From: an uncultured Candidatus Saccharibacteria bacterium
Lineage (GTDB): Bacteria; Patescibacteriota; Saccharimonadia; CAILAD01; CAZGYV01
DNA: 64,000 nucleotides
NCBI GenBank assembly: GCA_964530725.1
Contig: CAZGYV010000001.1
Coordinates: 15,829 to 79,828, forward strand
Reading direction: 5' to 3'
Under the pieces are notes generated by a model. The model had not been told where the DNA came from and searched no databases. It worked only from the letters and a program-made list of their open reading frames with translations. Below are positions 16,455 through 61,948 of this stretch, piece after piece. Position 1 is the stretch's first letter, and each line of letters starts with the position of its first letter. Both the position numbers and the translations under genes were made by a program.

Positions 16455-17866
16455 AGTATCAATTAGGTCGTCTAAAAAATAACCGCCGTGGCTTCTCGAT
16501 GGTGCAAGTCATTATCACATCGGTATTCTTGATGAGTATCGCGCTTATTATGGCAACTTCAGCGGTGGTGAATTTAAAATATACCAGCTACGTAGAAAAA
16601 TCTTATGATGCCAACTCGGTTGCTGAGGCCGGTATAAATTATTATCTATGGCATTTGGCACACAACATCAGCGATTACTGTGACGGTCAGGCTTGTGGCA
16701 CGCAAGGGCCTGACGGCTACGGGCCGTTCACACATCAATACAAAGACAGTAGCGGTAAAGTAGTTGGTACTTACGAGCTATATATCAAGCCGCCGCCGGC
16801 CTATTCGAGCATGACGACAGTCAAGTCAATCGGTCGGATCAATGGCTTAAACAAATCCCGCGTCTTGCAGGCGCAGCTGGCTGTCCCATCGTTCGCGCAG
16901 TATGCTTTGCTGACCGGTACGGAGATTTGGATTGGCCCAAGCGAGCGAGTTAATGGCCCGCTGCACTCCAATGTCGGCGTCCACTTTGACGGTATCGCCG
17001 ATGGTCCGGTAACGGCTGCTAACGCGACTTACCGGCCAACTGCTCAGTTTGGCGGTGACGGGCAGATGCATAATGGTGTTTGGGGTAATGGCGGACCTCA
17101 GTCATATTGGAGCTTTCCGGTGCCGCCAGTTGACTTTAACGCTGTCACGGCGGACTTGCAAAAAATCAAAACCGACGCCCAGAGCAATGGCGTCTACCTG
17201 CCACCGACCAATCCCGGCAATCCCAGCTCAAAGCTAGGCTATTACCTAGAATTAAAATCAAACAAGTCAATTGATGTTTATCGTGTCACCCAAGAACGTT
17301 GCACTAGCCTATCGAGAACCTTCGTTGCCAACTACGCCAAGCCGGCCAATGGCTTGCTCTACGTTGAGGATAATGTCTGGGTGCAGTCTAAGTCTGGTGA
17401 TAGGTACAACGACCGCCTGACGATTGCGGCTGCCTACCTGCCCAGTAGCGCCGCGCGTGATAAATCGATTACTATCACCGGCGATATTTTATACAGTGCT
17501 AAAGACGGCACGGCCGCAATTGGCTTAATTGCTCAGAAAGACGTCAAGGTGAATAATGTAGCGCCATATAATCTAGAAATCGACGCTGCCCTGCTCGCTC
17601 AAAAAGGCCATACATTTTTTGAAAGCAGCACCCTTTCGGCCAATTGTAGCAATCAAGTCAAGGGTACGATAACTGTGCACGGCGCGATCAGCAGCTATCT
17701 ATTTTGGACCTGGACTTATGTTACGGGTGGCAACAATGTGATCGATGGCTACGCCACGACTCTCTCGACCTATGATAGTTATTTGAAGTTTAACCCGCCG
17801 CCGAGCTTTCCGACCACCGGCACTTTTTCGGTATTAAACTTTAGAGAATTACTAGAAAATCCTTGA
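16451..17866 (+). CDS. PilX-like large minor pilin / pilus tip-associated protein
   Basis: ATGA-coupled to the previous gene. N-terminus MKYQLGRLKNNRRG|FSMVQVIITSVFLMSIALIMA (pseudopilin-like, Q at +5); 471 aa. Confidence 0.6.
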   Translation: MKYQLGRLKNNRRGFSMVQVIITSVFLMSIALIMATSAVVNLKYTSYVEKSYDANSVAEAGINYYLWHLAHNISDYCDGQACGTQGPDGYGPFTHQYKDSSGKVVGTYELYIKPPPAYSSMTTVKSIGRINGLNKSRVLQAQLAVPSFAQYALLTGTEIWIGPSERVNGPLHSNVGVHFDGIADGPVTAANATYRPTAQFGGDGQMHNGVWGNGGPQSYWSFPVPPVDFNAVTADLQKIKTDAQSNGVYLPPTNPGNPSSKLGYYLELKSNKSIDVYRVTQERCTSLSRTFVANYAKPANGLLYVEDNVWVQSKSGDRYNDRLTIAAAYLPSSAARDKSITITGDILYSAKDGTAAIGLIAQKDVKVNNVAPYNLEIDAALLAQKGHTFFESSTLSANCSNQVKGTITVHGAISSYLFWTWTYVTGGNNVIDGYATTLSTYDSYLKFNPPPSFPTTGTFSVLNFRELLENP

Positions 17867-39252: not shown

Positions 39253-40362
39253 TTAGTGAATGAAAGTCACAGCCGAGGTTGGCCAATCACTTTCGCTGTA
39301 GTGTCCCGTCATATCGGCGTTATATTCTGATACATGGACAGTGGCACCATTATTTTTAATTGATTCGACAATCATCACGTGGCCATACCGCCCGCCGCCA
39401 TAGACCGCGATCGCGCCAACTTCGGGCGAGCTGTCCACCCGGTAGCCAAAATTGCGCGCCCAATTCGGCCAGGTCTTGGCATCGGCCGGCCCCATTCTAC
39501 CCCAGGCCGGAATAGGCCGACCAATATTGGCCCGCCGCCAAGCCGCGTAGCTGGTACATTCGCGGTAGTAGAAGCCCCACGGGTCAGCTCCGCTATCTTG
39601 CACCAAGTGAGCCCACGGATAGCCGCCGGTACCACCATAGACGTTATTACTTGACCGAGCGGCAATGGCAGCTGCTTGCTGAGCTTTCAGTTTCGCGACA
39701 TCAGCCTTGTCGGATGAGACCAGTTGCTGGTAAGCCGCTTCTTCGCCTTGGGTTTTTGATAGTATACTCTGCTGTTCGTCTCGCTGTCGGTCAATATTAT
39801 CGACCTGGGCTTTTTGCTGAAAAGCTAGGATATCAAGCTTATGCTTTTTCTCATCAAGCTCGCGTTTAAGCTGATCAATTTTGACTAGATTTTCATTAAC
39901 CTTCTGCCTGATAGCAGACAGGTACTCTTGTTTGGAAACATAATCGCTCAAATTATCACTCGAAGCCAATAGCTCGAGCGTGCTGATATTGCCCTGCTTG
40001 TACATGACGACCATGTTTTCTTTGAGGATCTTTTTCTGCTTCTCCAGATCCTCGTTGGCTTTTTTGAGTTGCTCATTAGTCTGGGCTATCTGCAATTTTG
40101 TCACGTTTAGCTCAGCCTGAGCGGAATTAATCTGCCCCTGCAAGACGGCCAACTTATTGTGCAAAGTATTGGCCTCGGCTTGTTTTTGATTGACGGCCGT
40201 CTGATTTTGGTTAATCTTTTCATTAAGAGCGTTGATTTTATCATCGTACTCATCGGCCAAAACCACGCTTGGGACCAAGCCCAATACCAAAACCAAGCAA
40301 CAAATACTTGCTAAAATTTTTGTTTTAAATTGAATTTTAATTAGACCCTCCGGCTTTGTCAT
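39253..40362 (-). CDS. PcsB-like coiled-coil + CHAP-domain peptidoglycan hydrolase
   Basis: Signal/TM, ~200-aa coiled coil (Q/K/E/L heptads), and a C-terminal CHAP domain (YRECTSYAAWR...GHVMIVESI). Lies immediately downstream of ftsX. Confidence 0.85.
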   Translation of the reverse strand: MTKPEGLIKIQFKTKILASICCLVLVLGLVPSVVLADEYDDKINALNEKINQNQTAVNQKQAEANTLHNKLAVLQGQINSAQAELNVTKLQIAQTNEQLKKANEDLEKQKKILKENMVVMYKQGNISTLELLASSDNLSDYVSKQEYLSAIRQKVNENLVKIDQLKRELDEKKHKLDILAFQQKAQVDNIDRQRDEQQSILSKTQGEEAAYQQLVSSDKADVAKLKAQQAAAIAARSSNNVYGGTGGYPWAHLVQDSGADPWGFYYRECTSYAAWRRANIGRPIPAWGRMGPADAKTWPNWARNFGYRVDSSPEVGAIAVYGGGRYGHVMIVESIKNNGATVHVSEYNADMTGHYSESDWPTSAVTFIH

Positions 40363-40393: not shown

Positions 40394-41305
40394 CTAAAGC
40401 TTCAGATAGCGCGAGATCGCCAGCCAACTCGATATCACGCCTATCAATATACCGAGGCCAAATTCCGCCCCGACGACCAGCAGTAAACGTTGTGAAAAAA
40501 AGTTGATTACTTCGGGCGCGTTAAAGTAACTGACAAAGAATGGCCCCATCCAGCGAATAATCGGCAGTGATATCAAGACCGAAATGGTGGCTCCCAGTAC
40601 GCCATAGAGCGATCCCTCGACGATAAATGGCCCGCGGATAAACCAGTTGGTCGCGCCGACTAGCTTCATAATTTCAATCTCTTCGCGGCGGGTAAAAATC
40701 GCCATACGGATAGTATTGAAGATTATCAACAGCGAAATTACCAGGAAGGCTGTCGAGATAATAGTGCCGGCCTTGGCCACGCCATTGCTGATTTTGATGA
40801 TTTTCTCGTAGATTTTCTTGCGCGTGTCACTATCATCGTAGCTGGTAGACTTAATTATCTTCGAGTAGTCAGGTGCTTTGATAATATTGTTTATCTGATC
40901 GAGCTGACCGGCGTCCTTGGTCTTGACCTCGAGTGAGGCGGGTAGCGGATTGCCGATATCGGGCACTTTCTCGGTCAAGCTTTTACTGTCTTTGCTGATC
41001 GACTCGAAGCGCTTGAGAGCATCGGCCTTTGACACGTAGGTGACCGACTTAACATTATCAAGCGCGACTAGCTTAGCTTGCAGCTCCTTAATCTGATCGG
41101 TCGTGGCCTCGTCTTGTAAGAAAATGGCCAAATCGATTTTTTCCTTCACGGCTGTTAGCTGGGTGTGCAAAAACATGGCCGAAAAAGCGAAAAATGTCAC
41201 GATGACGAGCGTCACTACCATGATGGCGGTAGCGGCCGTCGATAACCAGGCATTGCGGAAGAGATTGCGAAAACCAGTCTTGAAAATTCGCCACAACGTT
41301 GTCAT
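40394..41305 (-). CDS. ftsX: cell division permease-like protein FtsX
   Basis: N-terminus RNLFRNAWLSTAATAIMVV, an extracellular domain, then three C-terminal TM helices with EIEIMKLVGATNWFIRGPF. Confidence 0.9.
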   Translation of the reverse strand: MTTLWRIFKTGFRNLFRNAWLSTAATAIMVVTLVIVTFFAFSAMFLHTQLTAVKEKIDLAIFLQDEATTDQIKELQAKLVALDNVKSVTYVSKADALKRFESISKDSKSLTEKVPDIGNPLPASLEVKTKDAGQLDQINNIIKAPDYSKIIKSTSYDDSDTRKKIYEKIIKISNGVAKAGTIISTAFLVISLLIIFNTIRMAIFTRREEIEIMKLVGATNWFIRGPFIVEGSLYGVLGATISVLISLPIIRWMGPFFVSYFNAPEVINFFSQRLLLVVGAEFGLGILIGVISSWLAISRYLKL

Positions 41306-41457
41306 AAAAACACCCCTCTAGAAATAGTCGACCCAAACTGCATCATTTGCGGCAAGTTCAAGGAAAGAACGAGCAGCACAATGAGGCGTACGCAACGGTA
41401 CGATGAACGAGCAGCGCAGTTCTTGACACAGAAATTGCCCAAAGAATTAAGCCCCAT
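41302..41457 (-). CDS. candidate 51-aa Cys-containing small membrane protein between ftsE and ftsX
   Basis: MGLNSLGNFCVKNCAARSSYRCVRLIVLLVLSLNLPQMMQFGSTISRGVFL. Its ATG shares its A with the ftsE TGA (TGATG) and its TGA overlaps the ftsX ATG (ATGA). It is below the ORF-track size cut-off. The paralogous DNA copy at 60793-60890 is not intact in this frame. Confidence 0.35.
   Translation of the reverse strand: MGLNSLGNFCVKNCAARSSYRCVRLIVLLVLSLNLPQMMQFGSTISRGVFL
41355..41450 (-). repeat. copy A of a ~95-nt intergenic element (post-ftsE)
   Basis: About 70% identical, with the same block spacing, to 60793-60890. Shared blocks are GTTCAAGGAA, GAGGCGTA and TTCT(T)GAC(A/G)CAGAA. The internal hairpin is CGTAC-n6-GTACG. 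Confidence 0.6.
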
Positions 41458-42155
41458 CACAGCACGAACCTCCCGACCTTCTCGTCTTTAATAATCCGCC
41501 CACGGTTAATTGTCACGACTCGTTTTTTGAGGGCGTTGACGATTTCTTTGTTGTGCGTCGTCAGCAGGACGGTGGTGCCGAATTTGTTGATCTTAAGCAA
41601 TAACTCAATAATATCCCAAGCGTTTTTGGGATCAAGGTTACCGGTCGGCTCATCAGCGATTAGAATCTTGGGATTGCGCACCAAAGCTCGAGCGATGGCA
41701 GTACGCTGTTTCTCGCCGCCCGATATTTCACCCGGGTAATTGTTGGCTTTTTCTGATAAACCGACCAATTGCAGTATTTTCGGCACTGCTCGCTTAATCT
41801 CAGACGTTTTGACCCCCGATACTTCGAGCGCGAAAGCCACATTTTCATAAACCGTTAGATTGGGCAGCAGCTTAAAATCCTGAAAAACCACCCCAATACG
41901 CCGCCGCAGATGCGGAATATTTGCCTTATCGATAGTGTCATAATCAACGCTGCCGACAATAATTTTACCCGAAGTCGGCACTTCTTCCTTAATAAGTAAA
42001 CGAATCAGCGTCGATTTACCGGCCCCAGAGGCGCCAACAATCGTCACAAACTCTTTTGGGCTGATATGTAAAGATATCCCAGAAAGCGCCACTGTCTTAT
42101 TGGGATACATAACTGTAACACGATCTAATAAAATCACTCTACTATTGTAACGCAA
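41457..42155 (-). CDS. ftsE: cell division ATP-binding protein FtsE
   Basis: GASGAGKSTLIRLL (Walker A), ISGGEKQRTAIARAL (signature), ILIADEPTGNLD (Walker B). Confidence 0.9.
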   Translation of the reverse strand: MRYNSRVILLDRVTVMYPNKTVALSGISLHISPKEFVTIVGASGAGKSTLIRLLIKEEVPTSGKIIVGSVDYDTIDKANIPHLRRRIGVVFQDFKLLPNLTVYENVAFALEVSGVKTSEIKRAVPKILQLVGLSEKANNYPGEISGGEKQRTAIARALVRNPKILIADEPTGNLDPKNAWDIIELLLKINKFGTTVLLTTHNKEIVNALKKRVVTINRGRIIKDEKVGRFVL

Positions 42156-59387: not shown

Positions 59388-59899
59388 TTTAACTTACCCA
59401 GTTTATAGGTGTGGCTAGTCTTATTGCGGCCGGTGATAGTATAGATCACCCCAAAAGCCACAAAGGCCAGTACTACATTATATAACACTTCAATACCCAA
59501 AAACTTAAGCGAGTACAAGTCAAGAGACTGATTAGGAGTCCCAATCAAGCCCAGCGACATCACAATCGAATAAAAAACCGTGCCGAAGCCGATTACAATT
59601 AGCGCATAAGTATTGCGCGCCGGTGATTCGCCGAGGGAAAGAATAATTTTGATAATGATCACCAATAAAACATAAAAAGCCATATTGATACCAAAATCAT
59701 TACCACTGTATAGATCGAGAATGAAGCCGCCGCCAAGAGCTAGCCATACAAGGCTCGAATAATCCCAAAATAAACTGGCTACGACCAAATAAACCAATAA
59801 AAAGTTAGGCGTTACCCTGTTTTGACCGACCAAGCTAAGCGCTGACGCTTGAGCGAACACGGCCGCGAGCATTAAGCCGATTTGCCAGACGCGGCGCAT
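59384..59899 (-). CDS. mreD: rod shape-determining protein MreD
   Basis: 171-aa polytopic membrane protein between mreC and PBP2, with overlapping start and stop codons. Confidence 0.7.
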   Translation of the reverse strand: MRRVWQIGLMLAAVFAQASALSLVGQNRVTPNFLLVYLVVASLFWDYSSLVWLALGGGFILDLYSGNDFGINMAFYVLLVIIIKIILSLGESPARNTYALIVIGFGTVFYSIVMSLGLIGTPNQSLDLYSLKFLGIEVLYNVVLAFVAFGVIYTITGRNKTSHTYKLGKLK

Positions 59900-60693
59900 T
59901 ACTTCTGCCCCAACACCACAAAAACAATCTCAAGCTTGGATGTATTCACGAGCGGGCGTAAATGGGCCGTTTGGAACAAGGCATTGTCACTGCGATCGAC
60001 AGCCTCGACTTGACCGATCAAGATACCGCGCGGAATGATATCCGAGCCGGCCGTAATCACAGTCTCGCCAGGCCTGATCGATTCGCTTTGGGCGATTTTT
60101 TCCATCTCATAACCTTCACCAAGCTGTCCCTTGACAACACCGCTGGCTCTGCCCTCCTGACCAAGCCCTAAAATTCTAAACTCAGGGTCATCAATTAAAA
60201 ATATTTTGGCGCTGTAATCATTCACCTCCTCAACCTCACCGACAAGAACGCCACCAGAGACGGCCGCCATGCCCTTTTTGATATTACTCGAGGCACCCCG
60301 ATCGATCGTTAGATACTTGCGCACATTGTCAGGATTGTAGCCAACCACCCTGGTTGGCACTAGGTCGAGCGACAAGCGAGCGTTGAAGCCGACTTGCTTG
60401 CGCAAAATATCGTTTTCTTTCGATATTTCCTGCATATCTGACAACTGTTTTTTGAGCTCCAGCACCTCAGCTTCGAGCTGCTTATTTTTATTACCAAGAC
60501 TTGTCAGCGAGCCAAACAATCCAACCGTGTCGCTAATATTACGAGCCGAGGCCGTGAAAAACCGACCAACCGGGCTAAAAGCCTGGTCGAATACTATGCG
60601 CAACGGCCACAAAAGCCCAGTGAGTTGCAACACGACGATAATAATACCGACGGACAACACCGTAATAGTAGTAAAGCGAATTTTCCTCTTCAT
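59899..60693 (-). CDS. mreC: rod shape-determining protein MreC
   Basis: N-terminal TM helix, a coiled coil (LEAEVLELKKQLSDMQE) and beta-barrel repeats (GMAAVSGGVLVGEV..., ITAGSDIIPRGILIGQV). Confidence 0.9.
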   Translation of the reverse strand: MKRKIRFTTITVLSVGIIIVVLQLTGLLWPLRIVFDQAFSPVGRFFTASARNISDTVGLFGSLTSLGNKNKQLEAEVLELKKQLSDMQEISKENDILRKQVGFNARLSLDLVPTRVVGYNPDNVRKYLTIDRGASSNIKKGMAAVSGGVLVGEVEEVNDYSAKIFLIDDPEFRILGLGQEGRASGVVKGQLGEGYEMEKIAQSESIRPGETVITAGSDIIPRGILIGQVEAVDRSDNALFQTAHLRPLVNTSKLEIVFVVLGQK

Positions 60694-60792
60694 GCAACCT
60701 TATTTTACCATTTATTGAGATGGGTTTGTGATAGAATTCTGATCTTAGATTCTTTATAAGAAAAATAATACCGAGACGCATTTATAAGAATG

Positions 60793-60890
60793 GAGTTCAA
60801 GGAAGAAATGAGAATCGTAGAGAGGCGTAGTTTGCACTACGTCGAGCGAGACTCGCAATTTCTGACGCAGAAGTACGTCTTAAAAATGTG
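60793..60890 (-). repeat. copy B of the ~95-nt intergenic element (post-mreB)
   Basis: See copy A (41355-41450). The hairpin here is CGTAG-n6-CTACG, a compensatory change relative to copy A. Confidence 0.6.
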
Positions 60891-60895
60891 TCGAT

Positions 60896-61948
60896 CTACC
60901 GCGGTGTTTTTTCATATTGGGTGGAGACCAGCACATCCTTCAAACTATCAATATCCTCCAAGACCAGCCCCGTACCCCGTACCACCGCAGTCAATGGATC
61001 CTCGGCAATATGAATGGGCATCTTGGTTTGTTGATTTAGTAGTTTGTCTAGTCCGCGCAGCAAAGCCCCACCGCCAGCCAAATAAATGCCCTTGTCCATG
61101 ATGTCAGCGATCAGCTCAGGCGGCGTTTCCTCGAGAGTATTTTTAACCGCGTCGACGATCGAGCGCACGCTTTTGGCTAACGCCTGACGTACCTGATCGG
61201 ACGTAATAATGATTTCCTTTGGCAGGCCGGTTACGATGTCACGACCGCGGATCGGTGCCTCGATTTCCTCATCGATCTTACAGGCTGAGCCGACATTGAT
61301 TTTAATAGCTTCTGCCGTACGCTCACCTACCTGAAGATTGAATTTCTCCTTAGCATAGTTGATGATATCCTCGGTCAGTTCATCACCAGCAATGCGAATC
61401 GAGCGACTGGCCACGATCCCGCCCAAGCTAATCACCGCCACTTCACTGGTGCCGCCACCAATATCAACTATCATCGAGCCGGCGGCCTCATGCACCGGCA
61501 GGCGACTGCCGACTGCTGCTGCCATCGGCTCCTCGATCAGGAAAGCTTGGCGCGCGCCGGCGTTAGTAGTAGCGTCTTCGACCGCTCTTTTTTCGACTTC
61601 GGTCACTCCCGAAGGAATACCAATCACGACCCGCGGGCGGGGAAAAAAGGCGAAGCTCTCTTTGTGAACCTTCTCAATAAAATACTTAAGCATTTGCTCG
61701 GTGATTTCAAAATCACTAACAACGCCGTCGACCAAAGGCCTCGAAGCGACAATGTAAGCCGGCGTCTTACCGACCATCGTCTTGGCCTCCTCGCCGATCG
61801 CTAAAATCTGCTTCGTCTTAGTATTGATCGCGACCACACTGGGCTCGTTGATAATTATCCCCTTACCACGAACATAGACCAAGGTGTTTGCCGTACCCAG
61901 GTCTATGCCAATGTCGTGCGAAAATCTTCCTAGAATTTTTTTTAACAT
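60896..61948 (-). CDS. mreB: rod shape-determining protein MreB (paralog 2, canonical mreBCD context)
   Basis: IGIDLGTANTLVYVRGKGIIINEPSVVAI, DIGGGTSEVAVISLGG and LAGGGALLRGLDK. Confidence 0.95.
   Translation of the reverse strand: MLKKILGRFSHDIGIDLGTANTLVYVRGKGIIINEPSVVAINTKTKQILAIGEEAKTMVGKTPAYIVASRPLVDGVVSDFEITEQMLKYFIEKVHKESFAFFPRPRVVIGIPSGVTEVEKRAVEDATTNAGARQAFLIEEPMAAAVGSRLPVHEAAGSMIVDIGGGTSEVAVISLGGIVASRSIRIAGDELTEDIINYAKEKFNLQVGERTAEAIKINVGSACKIDEEIEAPIRGRDIVTGLPKEIIITSDQVRQALAKSVRSIVDAVKNTLEETPPELIADIMDKGIYLAGGGALLRGLDKLLNQQTKMPIHIAEDPLTAVVRGTGLVLEDIDSLKDVLVSTQYEKTPR

Follow-up and report, generated by a model that had tools for sequence, protein, structure and literature searches.

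In a 64,000-nt stretch of DNA from an uncultured Candidatus Saccharibacteria bacterium (contig CAZGYV010000001.1; the whole stretch is called the window here), the cell-division genes ftsE and ftsX lie 151 nt apart on the minus strand, and an open reading frame (ORF) fills the gap and overlaps both genes. The spacer is an insertion that belongs to a family of hairpin repeats, and its hairpin shows covariation. The frame crossing it is under no amino-acid constraint; its reading frame, its length class and its overlaps with the two genes have been preserved recurrently. We consider it probable that this bridging frame is a translational relay, which would pass ribosomes from ftsE to ftsX across the inserted hairpin. 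The features of the locus are the following.

41457 to 42155, minus strand: ftsE, ABC ATPase (Pfam ABC_tran; 89-93% identity to Saccharibacteria FtsE)
41302 to 41460, minus strand: bridging ORF of 51 or 52 codons, the candidate relay (same frame and overlaps kept in relatives)
41345 to 41440, minus strand: hairpin repeat copy 1, core (RNAalifold and covariance model R1, 111 bits)
41313 to 41319, minus strand: Shine-Dalgarno-like AGAGGGG, 7 nt upstream of the ftsX ATG, within the 3' end of the bridging ORF
40394 to 41305, minus strand: ftsX, permease-like cell-division protein (Pfam FtsX_ECD and FtsX; Saccharibacteria FtsX homologues)

The bridging frame in long ftsE-ftsX spacers

The ftsE stop is a TGA at 41459-41457 and, as the initial annotation had described, its final A is shared with the ATG of the bridging ORF (41457-41455), from which 51 codons run to a TGA (41304-41302) that overlaps the ftsX ATG (41305-41303) as ATGA. 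The 151-nt gap and the peptide as quoted there, with three cysteines (positions 10, 14 and 22), were also found in the sequence. An in-frame GTG (41460-41458), absent from that annotation, overlaps the ftsE stop as GTGA and is the conserved start candidate. The last ~30 nt of ftsE contain a purine-rich GGGAGG stretch and the NTGA junction, which are the ribosome-binding site and start of ftsX in relatives without the insertion. Because the bridging frame was open in ~20% of dinucleotide shuffles of the window spacer, the window ORF alone is unremarkable; the non-chance signal is the comparative pattern and not the single ORF.

We collected 80 Saccharibacteria ftsX loci, 79 of which have both ftsE and ftsX. 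The two genes overlap by 4 or 1 nt in 30 of these 79 loci (22 as ATGA) and most of the other pairs are 0-36 nt apart, which agrees with the initial statement that they normally abut or overlap; gaps of at least 46 nt occur in only 11 loci. The closest genera beyond the window's species pair (L001-L004) have spacers of 20-31 nt that contain little beyond the ribosome-binding site, indicating that the 151-nt spacer is an insertion, for which these loci and those with an ATGA overlap provide the empty sites. Every long spacer retains at its 5' junction the ancestral context ...GGNNNGTAC-N5-(A/G)TGA. Ahead of the bridging start lie the same 30 nt of conserved ftsE 3' end as are found before the ftsX ATG in insertion-free loci, including a GGGAGG-like purine-rich stretch 8-12 nt upstream of the start. 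Thus, the bridging frame begins at the ancestral ftsX start.

Nine long spacers (76-166 nt) follow an ftsE gene ending in TGA: those of the window, L081, L005, L006, L007, L028, L062, L070, and L078. In 9/9 the spacer length is 1 modulo 3 and the ftsE stop is overlapped (NTGA) by a start codon, ATG or GTG, whose frame stays open until a TGA that in turn overlaps the ftsX start (ATG or GTG); the end point differs in L062, where a TAG situated 4 nt into ftsX closes the frame. Of the 18 remaining frames in these nine spacers, 1 was open and 17 were closed (hypergeometric p ~2e-6, or ~1e-5 with the window and L081 counted as one event). The probability that the required frame is open, as estimated by shuffling, was 0.05-0.46 per spacer, without the further factor of one in three for the right length class. 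Four of the inserts (L007, L062, L070, and L078) show no sequence relationship with the R1 hairpin family described below and represent therefore independent events; most of the long unrelated inserts are themselves long hairpins (z of -2 to -6). L065, whose ftsE stops with TAG, has a different, very stable palindrome (L065:3848-4000; z = -6), made of CAAGAT/CAAGAC-type repeats and their complements, and this is also crossed by an open frame, which ends in ATGA on the ftsX start. The peptides of the bridging frames are unrelated among genera.

Further evidence was obtained from L221 and L222, which are strains of the window species and keep the same frame and both overlaps. Compared with the window spacer (41306-41456), theirs (L221:1368-1500 and L222:706-838) show an 18-nt in-frame deletion, TTTGGGCAATTTCTGTGT. 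The outer helix thereby loses its 5' arm and, with it, the best-conserved block of the element, while the GTGA, the frame and the ATGA remain. Two further changes just 3' of the ftsE stop abolish the ATG. RNA structure alone, which the initial annotation had considered as a possible full explanation of any conservation, is unable to account for the frame rule and for this in-frame deletion. Nor did the stops or frameshifts that it had envisaged in the spacers of relatives turn up in the TGA-type loci, all nine being open; L052, L061, and L075, with TAA/TAG stops, are unbridged. Of the properties to be compared in related spacers, the frame, the length class and the coupling are therefore conserved, and the cysteine positions are not.

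The latter result bears on the proposal, made in the initial annotation, that the product of the ORF is a small Cys-rich membrane protein functioning with FtsEX, which we now consider highly improbable. In favour of this proposal are the open frame coupled to both genes, the fact that the frame is open in the sister species too, and the stretch VRLIVLLVLSL, which brings the best 19-residue hydropathy to 1.53. However, this stretch results from in-frame reading of the T-rich 3' arm of the hairpin, and the corresponding values were 0.5-1.6 or negative in the other bridging peptides, most of them lower than in the window and some peptides being hydrophilic, so that the predicted transmembrane helix is not conserved. 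In the sister species (L081-L090; FtsX 91% identical), the spacer is again exactly 151 nt long and open from GTGA to ATGA, with loss of the ATG, but the peptide shares only 23 of 51 residues with that of the window. The 51 nucleotide differences are distributed 13/20/18 over codon positions 1/2/3, without third-position bias, and Cys14 and Cys22 are replaced by Ile and Phe, leaving Cys10 as the only one common to both (L081). Between L221/L222 and the window, the bridging frame shows 7 nonsynonymous changes, 1 synonymous change and the 6-codon deletion, compared with 0 nonsynonymous and 46 synonymous changes in ftsX, whose protein is 100% identical. Relative to the third codon positions of the flanking genes, the spacer core evolves at a 2-3-fold lower rate and the spacer flanks at about the same rate, indicating that the constraint is on the hairpin rather than on a protein. 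The two exhaustive protein searches revealed no homologue: no word-sharing candidate was found among 5.8 billion clustered proteins, and phmmer, run with the 51-residue peptide over 1.84 billion representatives, returned only four tandem-repeat artefacts (P0178-P0181, long ORFs called over tandemly repeated DNA, each matching 4-10 times). There was no Pfam match, and the exact product is absent from a 15-billion-protein collection.

The hairpin repeat in Saccharibacteria and other bacteria

About 80 nt of the ftsE-ftsX insertion recur in the mreB-mreC spacer, the window containing two copies only. The initial annotation had mentioned this second DNA copy, with a TAG at the position of Tyr20 and no start codon in the equivalent frame, and it proved to be real; it has stops in all three frames and no bridging ORF. 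Further features of the window are given here.

60896 to 61948, minus strand: mreB, flanking copy 2 (Pfam MreB_Mbl)
60775 to 60892, minus strand: hairpin repeat copy 2 (core 60784-60879; R1 102.7 bits), 4 nt past the mreB stop
59899 to 60693, minus strand: mreC, flanking copy 2 (Pfam MreC)
39253 to 40362, minus strand: PcsB-like CHAP peptidoglycan hydrolase, 3' of ftsX (Pfam CHAP; CC_PcsB below cut-off)

The minus-strand gene order around copy 1, as determined with Pfam, is prfB, ftsE, ftsX, the PcsB-like CHAP hydrolase and an S41 peptidase, so that the FtsEX-hydrolase context had been read correctly in the initial annotation. The genome from which the window comes has a G+C content of 48%, and the best FtsX homologues are all from Candidatus Saccharibacteria (TM7, Patescibacteria).

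Paired changes distinguish the two window copies in the outer stem (AAGAAC/GTTCTT versus AGAAAT/ATTTCT) and in the apical stem (CGTAC/GTACG versus CGTAG/CTACG), and the sister-species spacer (L081-L090) shows a third outer-stem state (AAAACT/AGTTTT). With RNAalifold, the three sequences gave an imperfect hairpin of 25 pairs, 8 of them compensatory, on which the covariance model R1 was based. The copy-1 core has this consensus hairpin as its minimum-energy fold (-24.9 kcal/mol), and the whole copy-1 insertion probably spans ~41320-41456; the full-length fold of copy 2 has a z of -2.1. In Saccharibacteria, where the repeat is ~95-130 nt long, R1 copies were found at ftsE-ftsX (window, L081, and L006), at ftsX-pcsB (L005), at pcsB-ctpA (L059), upstream of prfB (L065), and at mreB-mreC (window, L217, L219, and L220, the latter three, from species closely related to that of the window, ~89% identical to the window copy). 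L218, a fourth relative, has no R1 copy and its 37-nt mreB-mreC spacer represents an empty site. All of these copies (two in the window and seven further sites) are co-oriented with the genes and begin a few nucleotides past the upstream stop codon, in a sample that is biased, since nearly all the Saccharibacteria DNA examined flanks ftsX or mreC.

Rfam 15 at the gathering threshold identified 2 tRNAs only in the whole window and, with E up to 10, one chance long non-coding RNA match only on 41200-41560. BLAST of the spacer against phage and plasmid sequences gave no match, and a literature search on Saccharibacteria repeats yielded nothing relevant. Several known types of site were considered and rejected: an intrinsic terminator (no T-run after the hairpin and no terminator-like site), an internal promoter with TTGAAC as -35 box (defining motifs or spacing wanting) and an integron attC site (AAC...GTT in only some copies on inspection of the alignment, and a context of core operons rather than cassettes). 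Scans of the minus strand disclosed no sigma-70-like promoter in the ftsE-ftsX spacer and no terminator-like site in this spacer or at copy 2, the sole minus-strand terminator-like match in the second scan (60662-60648) falling inside mreC. With neither promoter nor terminator on the gene strand of the spacer, ftsX is expected to depend on the ftsE transcript.

We then scanned metagenome contigs for three conserved blocks of the hairpin, GTCA...ACGCCTC...TCCTTGAAC, which gave 120 loci; with R1 we could confirm 65 copies, located in 58 unrelated contexts on contigs with a G+C content of 0.37-0.72 from hosts that are not Saccharibacteria; as a control, six chance pattern matches in viral contigs got no R1 score. 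Among 68 distinct copies, 93.4% of the cells were in standard pairs, compared with 75.0% after shuffling and at most 40% with slid partners, a large margin even though the alignment was fitted to R1, which favours pairing. Compensatory changes on both sides were observed in 23 of the 25 pairs. The excess of G-U pairs over A-C mismatches on the sense strand (117 versus 52) leans toward this strand being the folded one. Both strands fold about equally well, so that an action at the RNA level is not established.

The commonest subfamily was found in Desulfobacterales metagenome-assembled genomes, next to unrelated genes (e.g. for P-type ATPases and oxidoreductases), where the hairpin core occupies the middle of a ~175-nt element (e.g. 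L137:1745-1925, L163, L170, and L148). Exact 6-9-nt direct repeats (target-site duplications) flank 17 of 32 complete copies, which, together with the unrelated neighbours, indicates that the element is mobile there. Often the last two bases of the duplicated target are the TA of the stop codon of the upstream gene, and the first base of the element, G, restores a TAG. Upstream ORFs consequently finish precisely at the 5' edge of the element in at least 8 contexts, which looks like a preference for stop-codon sites. A high-G+C subfamily (contigs of 0.68-0.72, mostly from sample Ga0194120; L120, L127, L140, L145, L103, L154, L194, L200, L179, and L199) has the same core and architecture, with an outer stem co-varied to CCCCGATCCGCCGCTTCC/GGAATCGGCGGCCGGGG; L145 carries a tandem pair (1851-1947 and 1977-2073) and L199 the start of a second adjacent copy. 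The element ends are not simple terminal inverted repeats, as the 5' end pairs internally and a separate 3' hairpin tail follows. A search of the fetched loci through the element end motifs for an autonomous partner yielded only more small copies, and BLAST of the Desulfobacterales element against phage and plasmid sequences gave no match. In Saccharibacteria, the ftsE-ftsX insertion shows only a 3-5-nt (T)ATGA(N) duplication, which is equally possible as a product of selection, and the flank of copy 2 a possible CGGTA repeat. This hairpin repeat family is previously undescribed and outside Rfam; it is common to the ultra-small genomes of the Candidate Phyla Radiation (CPR), Desulfobacterales and high-G+C bacteria and appears to favour sites following a stop codon.

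The relay and alternative explanations

The relay would have arisen and would operate as follows. In the ancestral state, taken to be that of most Saccharibacteria, the ftsX ATG would overlap the ftsE TGA as ATGA and ribosomes would restart on ftsX. The hairpin element would have landed immediately 3' of this junction, so that the old ftsX start (now GTGA/TGATG), behind the purine-rich stretch of ftsE, would open a 52-codon frame through the hairpin, closed at a second copy of the junction by the TGA overlapping the present ftsX ATG. Ribosomes would end ftsE, restart on the bridging frame, melt the hairpin, end at the ATGA and restart on ftsX; selection would act on the act of translation, that is, on an open frame of the right length class, and not on the peptide. 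The (T)ATGA(N) present at both junctions is what would be expected from a 4-5-bp target-site duplication of the ATGA junction, the old ATG opening the bridging frame, the duplicated TGA closing it and the duplicated ATG starting ftsX, which may be its origin. As to whether the frame is translated, which the initial annotation had deduced from the double coupling, the pattern among relatives makes it look selected to be open and coupled, and translation is likely, while the function assigned to the peptide did not hold. The relay would presumably sustain FtsX synthesis or stoichiometry; the benefit of coupling could possibly lie in the FtsE:FtsX stoichiometry, in the unwinding of the hairpin or in avoiding untranslated RNA.

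Several observations weigh against the relay. Every long spacer has its own Shine-Dalgarno-like motif before ftsX, G-rich as in the window, and ftsX might therefore be initiated independently, making a relay dispensable. The copies at mreB-mreC and other sites have stops in all frames, indicating that the element does not need a relay everywhere. The whole spacer of the window folds no more stably than shuffled sequences (z = -0.07), so that melting of the hairpin may matter little in this species. The number of independent cases is also lower than nine, since the window, L081, and L221 represent one event, and L005, L006, and L028 may share one old insertion. For L062, L070, and L078, the ftsX start was chosen post hoc among in-frame candidates; despite this, the five cases with unambiguous starts all fit the rule. 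Finally, L052, L061, and L075 have long spacers without a bridging frame, but ftsE and ftsX do not overlap in this clade anyway.

One alternative, which we find rather unlikely, is that the frame is untranslated or irrelevant and the spacer a selfish or structural hairpin, acting, if at all, at the RNA level, with the open frame as a by-product. The hairpin could for instance be a 3'-exonuclease barrier or a processing site setting the ftsE:ftsX and mreB:mreC ratios, much as REP elements act on expression ratios in malEFG. The slow evolution of the core, with its compensatory changes, the typical location of family members directly 3' of co-oriented genes and the G-U excess mentioned above all fit with such a role, as does copy 2, which is conserved in three species without any ORF. 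The element cores are moreover generally stop-poor, 2/3 of the sense frames and about half of the antisense frames being open, and for this reason no family-wide frame can be deduced from them. What this alternative leaves unexplained is the 9/9 rule for length and coupling frame, which includes nonhomologous inserts and spacers whose other frames are closed in 17 of 18 cases, as well as the in-frame nature of a deletion that destroys the outer helix. The equal folding of both strands does not favour it either. An RNA role and a relay are compatible, not mutually exclusive, and the former may well be the role of the element at mreB-mreC. Still less likely is a role of the element as a cis-regulatory signal in RNA or DNA (e.g. 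a site for a protein or a small RNA) that co-regulates the envelope operons ftsEX-pcsB-ctpA and mreBCD. Both copies in the 64 kb do lie inside divisome or elongasome operons, other Saccharibacteria copies are within the prfB-ftsEX-pcsB-ctpA cluster, and loop and bulge sequences are conserved (UUUC-G-GUCA, GUACGCCUC, and UCCUUGAAC). Yet the sampling bias noted above affects this argument, the element is sporadic, being absent from most genera and from L218, its core adjoins unrelated genes in Desulfobacterales with target-site duplications and is hence mobile, and the 18-nt deletion takes out the most conserved 5' block while the locus is kept.

It is also conceivable, though we rate it as doubtful, that the hairpin is a cross-phylum mobile element that colonises operons without polar effects by bringing its own relay, the ORF being then an adaptation of the element and not of the host only. 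The element would insert right at stop codons or ATGA junctions and would be open lengthwise in a sense frame, ending in a G-rich Shine-Dalgarno-like motif. When relay ORFs were sought at Desulfobacterales copies located between co-oriented genes, one sense frame proved to be open throughout the ~175-nt consensus, and in L146 it ends 3 nt before the next ATG; start codons and gene starts are too uncertain there for a relay to be claimed. If this were true, the finding would gain in interest.

If the relay is confirmed, several independent insertions at ftsE-ftsX would all have retained the passage of ribosomes. This would be comparative evidence that Saccharibacteria strongly defend translational coupling from ftsE to ftsX, and a requirement for a given FtsEX stoichiometry would become testable. 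The case also calls for caution in the discovery of small proteins, as a doubly coupled, unannotated ORF may be real in the sense that it is translated and meaningless as a protein.

Known repeat systems and the mreB-mreC spacer

The closest analogy is with mycobacterial interspersed repetitive units (MIRUs). As summarised in a passage of PMC12548453 that cites Supply et al. 1997, MIRUs insert at start codons and contain an internal ORF coupled at -4 nt, which minimises the effect on expression. According to the same passage, they are, like the present element, short intergenic operon repeats co-oriented with the genes, with a small ORF that overlaps the neighbours' stop and start at -4 nt (ATGA) and is thought to permit insertion without disturbing expression through translational coupling (PMC12548453). 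An overlap of this type (GTGA/TGATG at the 5' end, ATGA at the 3' end) was found in 9/9 TGA-type long spacers and not at mreB-mreC. Differences are that the host phylum is Patescibacteria (Saccharibacteria), that the element is a long imperfect hairpin with covariation, present as a single copy per ftsE-ftsX or mreB-mreC site and not as a variable-number tandem repeat, and that the sequence looks unrelated, a view formed without direct comparison with a MIRU sequence. In addition, the frame rule holds here for unrelated inserts, and belongs therefore to the ftsE-ftsX junction as much as to the element. We do not claim membership in the MIRU family; what would be common is the working principle only. 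A MIRU-like relay across a cross-phylum hairpin, evolved recurrently and independently at the ftsE-ftsX junction of Saccharibacteria, would thus be a new variant of a principle already known.

The REP, REPIN and ERIC elements of Proteobacteria resemble the present family in that they are imperfect hairpins in intergenic operon regions, usually just 3' of genes, possibly acting on mRNA stability and forming dispersed families with presence/absence polymorphism. In contrast, there are only 2 copies in the 64 kb of the window, the core sequence is conserved across phyla, and the Desulfobacterales members bear 6-9-bp target-site duplications. Mobilisation of REP/REPIN elements by RAYT transposases is not known to yield target-site duplications, and no RAYT gene was seen. 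Miniature inverted-repeat transposable elements (e.g. Correia/NEMIS and RUP) and Rickettsia palindromic elements are likewise non-autonomous hairpin-forming sequences of 100-200 nt that are transcribed together with adjacent genes; they have target-site duplications on their flanks, as does the Desulfobacterales subfamily, and the dispersal observed here (58 distinct contexts, with empty sites in L001-L004, the ATGA-overlap loci and L218) is of this type. They differ from the present element, the ends of which are not simple terminal inverted repeats and for which the fetched loci contained no autonomous partner. Rickettsia palindromic elements are tolerated within reading frames and translated; the window ORF is, in contrast to these, a separate frame and not an in-frame insertion in a host protein.

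The mreB-mreC spacer appears to be an insertion hot spot. It measures 37 nt in one relative and 202, ~316, 610, and 613 nt in the others (window 60694-60895; L217:9388-10000; L219:9391-10000; L220:9685-10000; L218:9964-10000), and the cargo 3' of the hairpin differs, with an antisense 145-residue ORF in L217 and small LMWPc-like ORFs in L219. A sequence resembling an extended -10 box, TGGTAAAAT (TGCTAAAAT in L218), is conserved in the five species ~10 nt upstream of the mreC ATG (window 60704-60712, minus strand), which suggests that mreC is transcribed from a promoter of its own and that its leader is very short or absent. No relay would therefore be required at this site, where the hairpin may be an RNA 3' barrier or may merely be tolerated. 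Elsewhere in L217, a Transposase_20 gene (16558-17799, minus strand; weak Pfam match), which we take to be of the IS110 type, lies between the lysyl-tRNA and seryl-tRNA synthetase genes, at a site that is empty in L218-L220.

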